A DNA stretch of 64,000 nt from a bacterium (GCA_027002475.1 JALWZS010000038.1:46032-110031); one strand, 5' to 3'. Shown: positions 54,613 to 61,288, counted from the first letter of the stretch. Notes: a model not told the origin generated them from the sequence alone. Made by a program: numbers and translations.

Positions 54613-54746
54613 AGAAACTTTACAAACAAATAACAAATTACAAATTCTAAGTAACAAACTTGAGGATAACTAGGCAATTCGTTTTAAGTAAAGCCCGATT
54701 ATTGTTTGTGGTGTTTGTAATTTGCGATTTGTGATTTGAAACAAAC
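54613..54746. repeat. CA-rich/TG-rich imperfect long palindrome (family copy 2), atpA-atpG spacer
   Basis: Contains the exact 18-mer AGAAACTTTACAAACAAA (54613-54630), also at 57131-57148, and TTTGTAATTTG (54714-54724), also at 57217-57227. The CA-rich arm is complementary to the TG-rich arm (caaattacaaa / tttgtaatttg). Confidence 0.55.
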
Positions 54747-55643
54747 ATGTCTCAATTAAGAGAAATAAAAAGACGAATAACATCGGTAAATAACATAAGC
54801 AAGGTCACGCATGCTATGCAGTTAGTTGCTGCATCTCGCATGAAAAAAGCACAGGATAATGCGATAAAAGGTAAGGATTACTCCGAAAAAATTAAGGAGA
54901 TAATGCTAAACCTTTCCATAAACAAAAACGTTTTAGGTAGCCCGTTTATTGAGCCGGAATATGCTCGAGAGGTAGATGGAGTTTTACTGCTTGTGTTTTC
55001 ACCTGAGCGGGGATTAGCTGGGGGATTACCCTCGAATTTACTTCGTTTCACATTAAAGTTAATAGATAGCATAAAAAAACGAGGTGAAGGAGTTGAGGTT
55101 ATTACAATTGGGAAAAAGTTAAGAGATAGTTTGATACGAAGGGGAGTTAATGTTGTTGCGGACTTTTCTGGTATGCCTGAAAAACCAACCACGGCAGATC
55201 TTCGCCCAATTCATAAAATGATTACTCAAGGCTATCTTGACAAAAAATATGGTGAGGTTGTTATGGTGTTTTCAAAATTTATTAACGCCATGACTCAAGA
55301 GCCTGTTGCAAAACTTATTCTTCCTCTTGATTTAGAGATTTTAGAAAAATATGAGCAGCGCGATGAAAATGCAAGTGTGGCAGATGGGGAGTTTGTGTTT
55401 GAGCCGACACAGCAGGTCATTTTAGACCACTTGATACCAGGGTATTTAGAGTCACAACTTTACCAGGCACGTCTTGAAAGTGTGGCTAGTGAGTACAGTG
55501 CGCGAATGGTTGCAATGAAAAATGCGACAAACAATGCCAAAGATGTTCGTTCATATTTGACACTTGAGTATAATAAGTCGAGGCAGGCTCAGATAACTAG
55601 AGAGTTGTCTGAGATTAGTGCAGGAAGGTTGGCTAGGAGTTGA
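54747..55643 (+). CDS. atpG: F0F1 ATP synthase subunit gamma
   Basis: 298 aa. Conserved N-terminal helix (LREIKRRITSVNNISKVTHAMQLVAASRMKKAQ) and C-terminal helix. Confidence 0.9.
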   Translation: MSQLREIKRRITSVNNISKVTHAMQLVAASRMKKAQDNAIKGKDYSEKIKEIMLNLSINKNVLGSPFIEPEYAREVDGVLLLVFSPERGLAGGLPSNLLRFTLKLIDSIKKRGEGVEVITIGKKLRDSLIRRGVNVVADFSGMPEKPTTADLRPIHKMITQGYLDKKYGEVVMVFSKFINAMTQEPVAKLILPLDLEILEKYEQRDENASVADGEFVFEPTQQVILDHLIPGYLESQLYQARLESVASEYSARMVAMKNATNNAKDVRSYLTLEYNKSRQAQITRELSEISAGRLARS

Positions 55644-55750
55644 GGGGCGTCGTCGCGAGCGAATCACTTAGTGATAAGCGCGGCGATCTCAGATTGCTTC
55701 TCTCGCCTGTAGCGGGATCGCAATGACATATAAGAAGAATTAATGTAACT

Positions 55751-57109
55751 ATGACTGGAAAAATAGTACAAATACTAGGAAACGTTGTTGATGTTCGATT
55801 TGATGAATCGAGTGTTCCAGCAATTTATAACGCCTTAAAGGTTAAAGGTTCTGATTTGGTGCTAGAAACCGAGCAGCAGTTAGGTTATGGTATTGTTCGC
55901 ACTGTTGCGCTTGGTTCTACTGATGGGTTAAGGCGTGGAGATGAGGTTGAGGATACAGGCGAGCCTGTTAAAGTCCCTGTTGGTAAAGAAACTCTTGGTC
56001 GCGTCATTAACGTTATTGGAAAACCAGTTGATAACGAAGGACCAATTGAAGCTAAAGAGTATCGTGCAATTCACCAGAGCGCCCCGAAATTGACTGAGCA
56101 AGTCGTTGAACCAGAAGTTTTTGAAACTGGGCTTAAGGTAATTGACCTTTTTGCACCGTTTCTAAAAGGTGGAAAGATTGGTGTGTTTGGTGGTGCTGGT
56201 GTTGGCAAGACGGTCATCATTATGGAACTTATTCGAAACATCGCGACAGAGCACTCAGGTTACTCTGTTTTTGCTGGTGTTGGTGAGCGTACCCGTGAAG
56301 GTAACGACTTGATTGCTGAAACAAAAGAGTCTGGAGTTATTAATTCAACGTCTCTTGTTTATGGGCAAATGAATGAGCCTCCTGGAGTTAGGTTAAGGGT
56401 TGCCCTAACTGGTCTTACAATTGCTGAATACTTTAGGGATCAAGGTCAAGACGTATTGATGTTTATTGATAACATCTTTAGGTTTACGCAGGCAGGTGCA
56501 GAGGTTTCGGCGCTTCTTGGGCGAGTTCCTTCTGCTGTTGGATATCAGCCGACTTTGGCTAAAGAGATGGGTGACTTACAGGAAAGGATTACAAGTACAA
56601 ACAAAGGTTCGATTACATCTTTACAGGCGATTTATGTTCCGGCTGATGACTACACAGACCCAGCTCCAGCAACAACATTCGCCCATCTAGATTCAACAAT
56701 TACGCTTTCGCGTGCAATCGCAGAGCAAGGCTTGTATCCGGCTGTAGATCCGCTTGCATCCAGCTCAAGGGCTCTTGACCCACAAATTGTTGGTAAAGAG
56801 CACTACGAGACCGCTAGAGGCGTTCAGGAGGTGCTCCAGCGATATAAAGACCTTCAGGACATTATTGCAATTCTTGGTGTAGATGAATTGTCTGAAGACG
56901 ATAAGTTAACAGTTGCTAGGGCGAGAAAGATTCAAAGGTTTTTGAGTCAACCGATGTTTGTTGCTGAGGCGTTTACAGGTAGAAGTGGGAAGTATGTAAA
57001 GATGGAAGATACAGTAAAAGGCTTTAAGGAAATTTTGGCAGGGAATATGGATGATGTCGCAGAAGACGACTTTTACATGGTCGGCACGATAGATGAGGTG
57101 GGAAAGTAA
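55751..57109 (+). CDS. atpD: F0F1 ATP synthase subunit beta
   Basis: 452 aa. P-loop [16 protein letters not shown]-like motif DELSEDDK. Confidence 0.95.
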
Positions 57110-57110
57110 G

Positions 57111-57230
57111 CAAATCCCAAATTACAAATTAGAAACTTTACAAACAAAACCCAAATGATAACTATCAAACATACTAAACATCAAGGCTTTTTGTTTGGTA
57201 CGTTTGGGATTTAGATTTTGTAATTTGAAA
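57111..57230. repeat. CA-rich/TG-rich imperfect long palindrome (family copy 3), atpD-atpC spacer
   Basis: Shares exact 18-mer and 11-mer blocks with the 54613-54746 copy. caaattacaaatt...ttttgtaatttg arms. Confidence 0.55.
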
Positions 57231-57233
57231 CGT

Positions 57234-59574: not shown

Positions 59575-59610
59575 GGGGTAAAGTCTTTATGGCTTTACCC
59601 CTTTTTTATT
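59575..59610 (+). terminator. Rho-independent terminator
   Basis: ggggtaaag-tctttatgg-ctttacccc 9-bp GC-rich stem followed by TTTTTTATT. Confidence 0.7.
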
Positions 59611-59683
59611 CGTGCTCGATCTTGTTTGCTATTTACTTATTTCCCATTTCCTATTACTCTAAAATAAAAAGGGGGTGATTTGT

Positions 59684-59845
59684 ATGCCAGATTTTTTTAG
59701 CGACGAACAAGATAAATACCAAGAAGACCCAATGGTTACCATGGTAAAAGAACTAAAAGACATTAAAGAGTATATGAAAAGACTAACCGAAGACGTAAAG
59801 CGAATAATGGAGGATGTGAATAGGATGGAGAGGAAGCTTAAATAA
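59684..59845 (+). CDS. 53-aa highly charged, predicted helical small protein
   Basis: SD aaaaGGGGGTGatttgtATG. MPDFFSDEQDKYQEDPMVTMVKELKDIKEYMKRLTEDVKRIMEDVNRMERKLK, heptad-like and coiled-coil prone. Confidence 0.35.
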   Translation: MPDFFSDEQDKYQEDPMVTMVKELKDIKEYMKRLTEDVKRIMEDVNRMERKLK

Positions 59846-60019
59846 AGAAAGTCTAGAGTGGTAGGGTTTAAGCGTTTTAGTGTTGGAGCGTGAGTTTTTT
59901 GTATCCCATTGACCCTTTAACTCTAAGTTTGTGAAACAAACAACCCTCCAGCCCTACTATATATTGACATATATAGTCTACCTATGCTATACATTTTTCA
60001 TAGGTTATAATCAGTACGC

Positions 60020-61120
60020 ATGACATCCGATAACCAACGCCAACAAGCTGTTGCAGCAGCAATGGAACAAATTGAAAAACAGTTTGGCAAAGGCGCAATT
60101 ATGCGACTTGGCGAAAAAAGTCACATTGAAGGAGTTCAAGTTGTCCCAACAGGTTCAATTGCACTGGATCTTGCTTTAGGTATTGGTGGTGTTCCAAAAG
60201 GGCGAATTATTGAGATCTTTGGTCCTGAGTCGAGCGGAAAAACCACATTGGCTCTTCATATTCTTGGTAACGCTCAAAAACAAGGTGGAGTCGCCGCATT
60301 TGTTGACGCAGAACATGCTTTAGATCCGATTTATGCAGGTAAATTAGGCGTTGATTTAGAAAGCCTTCTTGTTGCTCAGCCTGATACGGGAGAGCAGGCA
60401 CTAGAAATTGTAGAGACACTGGTTCGTTCTGGTGGGGTTGACGTTATCGTTGTTGACTCCGTTGCAGCATTAGTGCCGCGCGCAGAGATTGAAGGTGACA
60501 TGGGCGATTCGCATATGGGTCTTCAGGCTAGACTTATGAGTCAAGCTCTTCGAAAACTAACAGGAGCAATTAATAAGTCAAACGCTACGGTTATCTTTAT
60601 TAACCAACTTCGAATGAAAATTGGTGTGATGTTCGGTAATCCTGAAACCACAACTGGTGGACGTGCATTAAAGTTTTACTCATCTGTGCGCTTAGATATC
60701 CGAAGAATTGGCTCGATAAAACAAGGTGACCAGGATTTGGGTAACCGAGTGCGTGTAAAGGTGGTTAAAAACAAGATGGCGCCGCCGTTTAAAGTTGCAG
60801 AGTTTGACATTATTTATGGTGAAGGAATTAGTAAAGAAGGGAGTCTGATTGATGTTGGGGTTGAGCTTGGAATTATAAATAAGTCTGGTTCGTGGTTTAG
60901 TTATGGGGAGCAGAAGTTAGGACAAGGTAGGGAATCCGTTCGTGAGTTACTTAAAGAAAATCAAGAGCTTGCAAAAAGGATAGAAAAAGAGATTCTAACT
61001 GAGATGAAAAATCAAGGCGCACCACTTGTTTTGGGTGTTGAGGAGGAAGATGTAAATGTAGAAAAAGAAGCTAATCCGGAGCCTGAGACGAGTGAAGAGA
61101 AGTCTAAAGGTAAAAAGTAG
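60020..61120 (+). CDS. recA: Recombinase RecA
   Basis: 366 aa. Walker [11 protein letters not shown]1/L2 loops. Acidic C-terminal tail. Confidence 0.97.
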
Positions 61121-61135
61121 CCCACTTTTACTTCG

Positions 61136-61288
61136 TAACAAATTTCAATTTACAAATTCCAAACTGGTCAAATAAACATCAAATAACAAGCTTGAATAAT
61201 CAAACGTTCAAAGTATTAGCAGTTTGTAACGTTTGTGATTTGCGTGGCTTGGAATTTGTTTGTGGTTTCGTTTTTGTGATTTGGATCT
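61136..61288. repeat. CA-rich/TG-rich imperfect long palindrome (family copy 4), downstream of recA
   Basis: acaaatttcaatttacaaattccaaac...gtttgtgatttgcgtggcttggaatttgtttgtggtttcgtttttgtgatttgg. Same arm composition and the shared TTTGTGATTTG block as the 54613-54746 copy. Confidence 0.5.

Follow-up and report, generated by a model that had tools for sequence, protein, structure and literature searches.

Heptamer-built palindromic elements in the atp and recA spacers of a candidate division WWE3 genome probably belong to a widespread insertion family

What kind of element occupies the spacers of an ATP synthase operon twice and recurs just after recA in the same bacterial genome? The question is raised by a 64,000-nucleotide (nt) stretch of DNA (JALWZS010000038.1:46032-110031, assembly GCA_027002475.1), called here the window, in which positions are counted from the first letter. 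The window belongs to a metagenome-assembled contig of candidate division WWE3 (Patescibacteria, or candidate phyla radiation, CPR), and the source genome was examined over about 84 kb. An earlier note, made from the sequence alone, had described a family of spacer elements, each with a CA-rich arm followed by a complementary TG-rich arm, and had proposed that they might be determinants of RNase processing or mRNA stability, small non-autonomous repeats, or binding sites for a regulator. As we discuss below, the elements probably stem from a widespread family of palindromic insertions of about 100-160 bp, of which they would be old and partly decayed copies; the family resembles both miniature inverted-repeat transposable elements (MITEs) and the intervening sequences (IVSs) of 23S rRNA.

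In each of three spacers, atpA-atpG, atpD-atpC and the one after recA, an arm poor in G and rich in CAAA precedes one poor in C and rich in TTTG, with a periodicity of 7 nt. In the atpA-atpG spacer (54613-54746), the G-poor arm (54613-54650) consists of an 18-mer, AGAAACTTTACAAACAAA, followed by CAAATAA CAAATTA CAAATTC; the centre is non-periodic, and the C-poor arm (54702-54740) reads TTTGTAA TTTGCGA TTTGTGA TTTG, so that the element ends 6 nt 5' of the atpG ATG. The atpD-atpC element (57111-57228) fills its spacer, beginning 2 nt past the atpD stop codon and ending 5 nt 5' of the atpC ATG. The element just after recA (61135-61294) is the best-preserved window copy, with the canonical CAAATTCCAAAC in its left part and TTGGAATTTGTTTGTGG ... 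TTGGTGCTTGG in its right part. The copy in the spacer between alaS and an FtsA/PilM-like gene (8837-8936) is marginal and degenerate: the CA-rich then TG-rich composition is retained, and the complementarity of the arms is lost.

The two atp copies share exact blocks, as the earlier note had said. The 18-mer AGAAACTTTACAAACAAA is found on the plus strand at 54613-54630 and 57131-57148 and nowhere else in the window, even when up to 3 mismatches are allowed (0.39 expected), and the 13-mer CAAATTACAAATT is found at 54634-54646 and 57118-57130. The order of the blocks is reversed between the copies, the 18-mer lying upstream of the 13-mer in the first and immediately downstream of it in the second. 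Both copies also have TTTGTRATTTGAAAC directly 5' of the start codon. When up to 1 mismatch is allowed, the motif TTTGTRATTTG has 23 matches in the window (6.2 +/- 2.1 expected; 0 of 100 shuffles as high), and these concentrate in the named spacers. The period-7 arrays of the window, such as ACAAATT (3.0 copies, 54626-54646) and ATTTGCG (2.7 copies, 54720-54738), comprise 2.7-3.4 copies each with 83-92% match; their units are degenerate and collinear, and are arranged as inverted arrays. A density scan for CAA and TTG arrays finds exactly the same four paired sites in the window.

An inverted-repeat search places complementary arms at 57111-57149 and 57189-57227 in the atpD-atpC element (39 nt, 72%), at 54626-54644 and 54714-54732 in the atpA-atpG element (19 nt, 89%), and at 61152-61173 and 61238-61259 in the recA element (22 nt, 77%); in the alaS/FtsA-like spacer it gave none. 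The RNA folds of the three clear spacers are modestly better than those of shuffled sequences (z -1.5 to -2.9), with values of -26 kcal/mol (z -2.1) for the atpA-atpG element, -23.5 kcal/mol (z -2.9) for the atpD-atpC element and -41 kcal/mol (z -2.4) for the recA element, whereas the alaS/FtsA-like copy has z +0.6.

Relatives of these elements are found in many other genomes. A family pattern, which consists of CAAATTNCAAA, a gap of 60-90 nt and TTTGTRATTTG and fits all three clear window copies, matches at least 120 loci in the genome_contigs collection, all of them in metagenome-assembled genomes (MAGs). At least 15 phylum labels are represented among the listed MAG matches. The labels include Omnitrophota, Desulfobacterota, many Patescibacteria classes, Bacteroidota, Planctomycetota, Nitrospirota, Acidobacteriota, Chloroflexota, Elusimicrobiota, Cloacimonadota, Dadabacteria, Gammaproteobacteria and one Nanoarchaeota. 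Since the carriers include a 3.2-Mb Deltaproteobacteria chromosome as well as complete or near-complete CPR genomes, binning artefacts are not the sole source of this spread across phyla. Among the complete genomes with the element are CP064978.1 (Peregrinibacteria), CP070735.1 (Deltaproteobacteria) and MGBH01000001.1 (Roizmanbacteria). The listed matches continue past the pattern as collinear arms with sharp ends, AAATTCC... and ...GGAATTT. The left arm of the family, which the right arm mirrors, reads AAATyM CAAATyh CAAGCAC CAAATyC CAAAyAAAT....

An nhmmer profile was built from 71 of the listed copies. Its consensus repeats the unit ATTCCAA, then the unit TTGGAAT, and ends in a T run; 109 of the 120 listed pattern loci are matched by it at full length. 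In the window, the profile recovers exactly the four sites of the earlier note (E 1e-15 to 1e-4): the recA element (61138-61291, E=1.3e-15) at full length (positions 4-139 of 142), the atpD-atpC element (57111-57228, E=1e-10), the atpA-atpG element (54620-54740, E=6e-9) and the alaS/FtsA-like copy. The last of these (E=1e-4, and 5e-4 with a profile made only from the rRNA-embedded copies discussed below) is near noise, a reversed-window control giving 1e-3. Of this fourth copy, then, the composition holds up; an inverted repeat, a favourable fold and a clear profile match do not. A fifth copy, with the canonical AAATTACAAGCCCCAAGCACCAAAC, lies 4 kb beyond the window in the spacer between greA-like and LDcluster4 genes, which brings the copies found by profile search in the source genome to five in about 84 kb. 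In 851 kb of genome loci, the profile finds 141 full-length copies, 21 of them beyond the 120 seed loci, at a density of at most 4 per 8 kb.

Control searches were nearly empty. The profile has 2 matches in 1.07 Mb of viral loci, which had been collected as chance matches of a three-unit heptamer pattern in IMG/VR, and 0 matches in 0.9 Mb of metagenome loci. The family pattern, searched across all of IMG/VR, gives 7 matches, of which 2 are real (one sequence on two viral contigs, L080 and L253); the chance level for the pattern is therefore low, and the element is not typically phage-borne. In metagenome_contigs, the 18-mer has 120 listed matches, all of them single chance ones and none resembling the family or the window. 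These results bear on the simplest alternative, that the elements reflect chance or local low complexity generated by replication slippage in AT-rich spacers, with no homology outside. Among the long simple repeats of prokaryotes, those with a heptanucleotide unit are the commonest, according to Mrazek (2007) as cited in PMC4679880, and the window copies have diverged strongly from one another (similarity 0.13). The exact 18-mer and 13-mer common to the atp copies, the full-length, collinear and reciprocal profile matches across phyla, and the near absence of matches in the controls already contradict this explanation, which we find scarcely credible. The earlier note had given two signs by which chance similarity would be recognised, no further copies in the genome and no conservation in relatives. 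Only the first is contradicted: further copies exist, but close relatives do not conserve the elements in place.

The connection of the family to rRNA emerged from an all-vs-all comparison of flanking sequences. Four loci (L163, L184, L226 and L246) have homologous flanks, which Rfam identifies as 23S rRNA, and seven elements lie inside these genes; the hosts are Saccharibacteria/Patescibacteria. By cmscan alignment, the copies sit in the apical loops of 23S hairpins, at positions 573-594 (helix 25), 1206-1226 (helix 45) and 152-178 (the helix-9 region) of the large-subunit (LSU) model. A fourth site is seen in L226 only. Some of these sites carry a copy in one genome but lack it elsewhere. 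Helices 9, 25 and 45, at or near which the first three loops lie, are the classical sites of IVSs; in other bacteria, RNase III cuts IVSs out with no re-ligation, which leaves the rRNA fragmented (PMC4990558). In CPR 23S genes, short uncharacterised insertions that are not introns have been reported at such sites, with no link made to repeats (PMC11270868).

Each rRNA copy lies between a pair of similar GC-rich mini-hairpins, CCGTGCnnnGCACGG and CCGCGCnnnGCGCGG, and the same brackets are seen at different rRNA sites (with brackets, L184 2970-3160 and 3780-3975; L226 495-690, 950-1140 and 1725-1925; L163 1710-1905; L246 320-520). In L226, the helix-25 and helix-45 copies begin with the same 30-nt left-end sequence, CCGTGCTTCGCACGGAACTTCTGAATGAAATCC. 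Because the mini-hairpins and the L226 left end are common to different rRNA sites, these copies represent independent insertions of one unit. The inserted unit seems to be a three-hairpin module of which the mini-hairpins are part. The relationship to the window copies holds in both directions: a profile made solely from the 7 rRNA copies matches the atpD-atpC (4e-11), recA (4e-10) and atpA-atpG (2e-7) elements, and a profile made solely from WWE3 copies matches all 7 rRNA copies. The window elements are thus relatives of IVSs and not IVSs themselves, as they sit in mRNA spacers and not in 23S rRNA loops. End-to-end folding is seen in the canonical and rRNA-embedded copies (-36 to -46 kcal/mol, z -3.7 to -6.4), and the folds of the window copies (-21 to -41 kcal/mol, z -2.1 to -2.9) are weaker. 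The extended stem-loop typical of IVSs is accordingly present in the canonical copies, the rRNA copies and, more weakly, the window copies. As a separate observation, the 23S rRNA gene of L246 (193-5837) is 5.6 kb long, compared with 2.9 kb for the model, so it carries several further insertions besides the element; the record has a run of N.

What, then, maintains the family? Its placement, symmetry and mode of divergence are informative. Of the copies whose contexts could be assigned from crude calls of open reading frames (ORFs), 83 lie between two called ORFs, 58 in tandem, 12 in convergent and 13 in divergent contexts; a further 16 overlap a crudely called ORF and 21 are at the edge of a locus. 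These counts roughly match random intergenic placement. Stop codons and start codons are both near, at median distances of 20 and 36 nt, respectively. The arms are mirror images, the left one made of CAAA plus three variable bases and nearly devoid of G, the right one made of units ending in TTTG and nearly devoid of C, so that the element looks alike on either strand. In tandem contexts, the sense and antisense strands fold equally well (-29.0 vs -28.3 kcal/mol, p=0.23) and form 173 and 178 G-U pairs, respectively; neither comparison, of sense with antisense folds or of G-U with A-C pairs, gives a signal of strand-specific RNA selection. There is also no signal of compensatory evolution between the arms. 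The left arm of a copy pairs with the right arm of an unrelated copy as well as with its own, indicating that the arms follow a shared consensus and do not co-evolve. One aligned position has a partial C-G/U-A association, for which subfamily structure can account. Similarity is higher within genomes (0.44) than between genomes (0.28, p=4e-14), hence the family has genome-specific subfamilies.

Several properties of MITEs are found in the family: two inverted arms make up the whole element of 100-160 bp, coding capacity is lacking, copies are dispersed and are present or absent between related genomes, and rRNA sites are filled or empty. Together with strand symmetry, orientation-neutral placement, independent decay of the arms, patchiness, subfamilies and several rRNA sites, these properties make a non-autonomous family of selfish-DNA character the best-supported interpretation. 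Of the options that the earlier note had offered, the MITE/REP-like one fits best, given the fifth copy, more than 140 copies in other genomes, genome-specific subfamilies and four 23S sites. RNase processing is plausible only by analogy with rRNA IVSs, and is not favoured by the absence of selection for pairing and the equality of sense and antisense folds.

Another possibility is that the elements are bidirectional terminators or attenuators, offering an A-rich arm, a hairpin and a U-rich arm on either strand. The base composition (left arm 46% A, right arm 48% T), the T run that ends the consensus and the proximity to stop codons are as this would predict. No terminator-like site, defined as a short GC-rich stem with a T run, was however found within any window element, and canonical terminators of this kind are found elsewhere: GGGGTAAAG...CTTTACCCC followed by a T run at 59575-59601, and another after the HU gene, from which it follows that the genome uses ordinary terminators. 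Moreover, copies are located between essential atp genes and within 23S rRNA genes, and 13 of the 83 classified copies are between divergent genes. Termination is thus a very improbable role, in agreement with the earlier statement that the elements are not simple terminators. At gathering thresholds, tRNAs were the sole Rfam matches in the window and in 15 canonical loci, and a permissive scan (E up to 1) of 54400-61700 gave one chance-level snoRNA match (E=0.53), outside the elements.

Could the hairpins instead be selected by the host? The gene labels of the window (atpA, G, D and C, recA, alaS and the FtsA-like gene) are borne out by the Pfam tables of the source contig, from which all gene coordinates given here are taken. 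An identical AtpG protein is encoded on ENA and Logan groundwater contigs; of its named relatives, those from WWE3 are the nearest. The plus-strand atp region (53090-57659) comprises atpA (53090-54568), atpG (54747-55643, ATG at 54747), atpD (55751-57109, stop codon 57107-57109) and atpC (57234-57659, ATG at 57234), so the two elements lie 3' of the alpha and beta genes and 5' of the gamma and epsilon genes. The plus-strand recA-recX region (60020-62209) comprises recA (60020-61120, stop codon 61118-61120) and recX (61568-62209, ATG at 61568). The start codons of atpG, atpC and recX have no Shine-Dalgarno sequence (54738-54749, 57225-57236 and 61545-61570), and many other window genes have one.

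ATP synthase contains three copies each of the alpha and beta subunits and one each of gamma and epsilon. With the elements placed 3' of the alpha and beta genes and reaching to within 5-6 nt of the gamma and epsilon starts, which lack a Shine-Dalgarno sequence, the arrangement is suited to intercistronic hairpins that the host would use to tune subunit ratios via segmental mRNA stability, RNase cleavage or occlusion of start regions; RNase J (338-1984) and RNase Y (62229-63626) are both encoded in the genome. The same atp/recA region was compared in WWE3 relatives at 90%, 74%, 66% and 61% AtpG identity. The profile finds no copy of the element in this region of the four relatives. In the atp spacers, most of them have a different hairpin (z -2.5 to -3.0), built of other short units (AAGGTTA/TAACCTT) and with the C-free arm first. 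The content of these spacers therefore turns over fast; the recurrence of unrelated hairpins in them is a point in favour of host selection. Against it stand the lack of compensatory evolution between arms and of any sense-strand bias in folding or G-U pairs, the presence of the family in divergent and convergent spacers and inside rRNA, and the weak folding of the window copies (z -2 to -3). The absence of a Shine-Dalgarno sequence from atpG is also no special feature of element-bearing genomes, since it is shared by the relatives examined, which do not carry the element. On balance, we consider it unlikely that the elements are host-selected hairpins.

The most conserved feature of the family is its register. 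In 50 aligned copies, CAAA and TTTG are nearly invariant at exactly 7-nt spacing, the 3 linker bases vary freely with no covariation, and the spacing of CAA and TTG across the family has a strong peak at 7 nt. Such conservation is compatible with the regulator-site option of the earlier note, which otherwise has no direct support. In its developed form, this option takes the elements to be arrays of binding sites for a factor that reads the 7-nt register, either a cold-shock-domain or S1-type single-strand binder that would recognise the UUUG arm, or else a transposase or other DNA-binding protein acting on subterminal repeats, the hairpin being secondary. A precedent is provided by TAACTGA heptamer arrays next to starts without Shine-Dalgarno sequences in Beggiatoaceae, for which S1, Csp and CsrA have been proposed as ligands (PMC4679880). 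The data put forward no candidate protein, however; the binding of a regulator would have no obvious role in rRNA apical loops, and a single-strand binder would not require that the arrays always come as an inverted pair. We hold a primary function as binding-site array to be decidedly improbable. We tentatively propose, as a possibility well short of an expectation, that the element is an undescribed mobile hairpin shared across phyla, that short 23S IVSs, at least those of Patescibacteria, are its rRNA copies, and that the 7-nt code of CAAA and TTTG is the recognition signal of a mobilising or binding factor common to uncultured lineages that are very distant from one another.

If the window elements are copies of an insertion family, their history and effects may be envisaged as follows. 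The element would spread by insertion, and would land and persist wherever an extra hairpin is tolerated, namely in intergenic spacers in any orientation and in 23S apical loops. Within the atp and recA operons, the copies would be co-transcribed and form long imperfect A-U/G-U hairpins. By analogy with rRNA IVSs, these hairpins are likely substrates of a double-strand-specific RNase such as RNase III, cleavage by which would separate atpA from atpG and atpD from atpC. The hairpins could also mask the start regions of atpG and atpC that lack Shine-Dalgarno sequences.

A number of points weigh against this account. No consistent direct repeat was seen by inspection of the flanks of 60 copies, and thus no target-site duplication was found. 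Half-arms around a longer insert, as might mark an autonomous parent or a transposase gene, were absent from the 120 loci of at most 8 kb. A BLAST search with a canonical copy against the PLSDB plasmids and INPHARED phages returned nothing, to which low-complexity filtering may contribute; with one real case in IMG/VR, no vector between phyla is evident. The near invariance of CAAA and TTTG beside free linkers suggests purifying selection on the motif, as opposed to neutral decay. CPR genomes are compact, and inert DNA should be lost from them quickly. The unrelated hairpins that recur in the atp spacers of relatives may mean that a hairpin there is useful to the host. Cleavage by RNase III is proposed by analogy, and no rnc gene, which would encode that enzyme, was found among 10 window ORFs scanned with Pfam. 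Finally, the taxonomy of MAGs may err: one MAG labelled Gammaproteobacteria has a Saccharibacteria-like 23S rRNA, and its contigs, which are rich in copies of the element, may be mis-binned. The MAG in question is CAYYDP01 (L184, L188, L194 and L204), in which the 23S rRNA is 75-83% identical to Saccharibacteria 23S genes.

Other repeats and hairpins are present nearby. The recA-recX spacer (447 nt) contains the element, a GC-rich second repeat and an unpaired TTTG-type half-arm. The half-arm, TTTGCAATTTGATGTTTGGGGTTTG (61477-61517, upstream of recX), is a period-7 TTTG run with a half-length profile match at noise level (E ~4e-3), and is a possible fragment at most. Within the recX frame, a period-7 CAAA array of 3.4 copies (61826-61860) encodes roughly KITKYKIQISN and likewise has a half-length match at noise level. 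A TTTG-rich periodic stretch with no partner arm (44490-44535) lies between a minus-strand tRNA-Pro and the start of a minus-strand ORF (42921-44489). The long divergent spacer 5' of recA (59348-60019) holds small ORFs in addition to the canonical intrinsic terminator. The marginal fourth copy is flanked by alaS (7002-8819) and the FtsA/PilM-like gene (8989-10113).

The GC-rich repeat forms a second family, with blocks GCGTC[GA]TCGCGA, GGCGATCT, AGATTGCCACGC and GCTCGCAA[TC]G. It is found in the window at 55644-55750, 61375-61485 and, more weakly, 25815-25900, and in locus L004 at 2760-2880; it takes up the atpG-atpD spacer in the window and in the 74% relative alike, follows the recA element, and has no Rfam match. 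In hairpins of opposite polarity, the first arm is free of C and rich in G, T and A, and the second is free of G; these hairpins are built of the units AGGGTTTAAGGGTT, GAGTTGTAGGG and AAGGTTA and fold with z -2.3 to -4.0. They are located in the window at 54569-54607, 6540-6640 and 59855-59965, and elsewhere at L003 10850-10925 and 12300-12380, L004 1775-1865 and L005 15-105; they may represent additional families of this general type. A regular-expression search for hairpins with the C-free arm first gave one match only, in L003.

If the family is what we propose, a sequence definition and a working profile become available for an abundant, unannotated class of intergenic DNA in the genomes of candidate phyla and uncultured organisms. 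Dispersed palindromic repeats and rRNA IVSs, which are usually handled separately, would become linked, and the short uncharacterised 23S insertions reported in CPR would acquire a concrete origin. Spread between phyla, fragmentation of rRNA and cutting of operon mRNA at the hairpins would become testable. The elements would also probably seed spurious ORF calls and assembly breaks, and could confuse taxonomic binning.

How does the family compare with known systems? The closest likeness in rRNA is to 23S IVSs, which have been named from Salmonella, Yersinia, Campylobacter, Leptospira, Coxiella and Alphaproteobacteria. Each is an AT-rich extended stem-loop, about 100-200 nt long, that takes the place of the apical loop in the same rRNA hairpins; each occurs sporadically, in a way that suggests horizontal spread; and homologues of the window elements occupy such sites in Patescibacteria/Saccharibacteria. 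They differ in that the window copies are in mRNA spacers, in that excision by RNase III is known for IVSs and putative for the present family, and in that classical IVSs lack arms of 7-nt periodicity and are not described as a repeat dispersed through the genome.

Among intergenic repeats, Correia elements of Neisseria and the ERIC/IRU elements of enterobacteria and Yersinia are imperfect palindromes of 100-160 bp, present in multiple copies between genes and often co-transcribed in operons. Their RNAs form long hairpins that are cut by RNase III or alter mRNA stability. The present family shares with them the size, the imperfect palindrome, the multiple intergenic copies and the long hairpins. 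Each of those families is confined to one genus or family and has a consensus that is not periodic, and Correia elements have a TA target duplication; the present one, in contrast, is found in MAGs labelled with many phyla, is built of heptamer units and has no detectable target duplication. REP sequences, with their BIME arrangements, and REPINs are likewise extragenic, palindromic and multi-copy, with genome-specific subfamilies, and a REPIN is an inverted doublet whose hairpin measures about 100 nt (PMC3116915). REP units, however, are 20-40 nt long, usually GC-rich, species-specific and linked to a RAYT transposase gene (PMC3116915), and the arms of the present family are AT-rich heptamer series.

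Heptanucleotide arrays share the 7-nt unit, the intergenic position, a patchy distribution across phyla and, often, a location directly 5' of starts without Shine-Dalgarno sequences. The STRR sequences of cyanobacteria are heptanucleotide repeat arrays. TAACTGA repeats are known from Beggiatoaceae, cyanobacteria and Bacteroidetes (PMC4679880). In both, a single near-perfect unit is repeated in direct tandem, unlike the degenerate units of the present family (CAAA plus 3 variable bases), which are collinear and always come as two inverted arrays that form one palindrome. TIGR-Tas arrays were also considered and ruled out, since they are tandem guide arrays and the elements here are single palindromes. 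A full-text search found no published description of the element's sequence, or of MITEs or such repeats in CPR or Omnitrophota. Palindromic intergenic repeats and rRNA intervening sequences are thus kinds already known; what appears to be new is a design built from heptamers, its occurrence under many phylum labels and the identity of dispersed intergenic copies with rRNA insertions.

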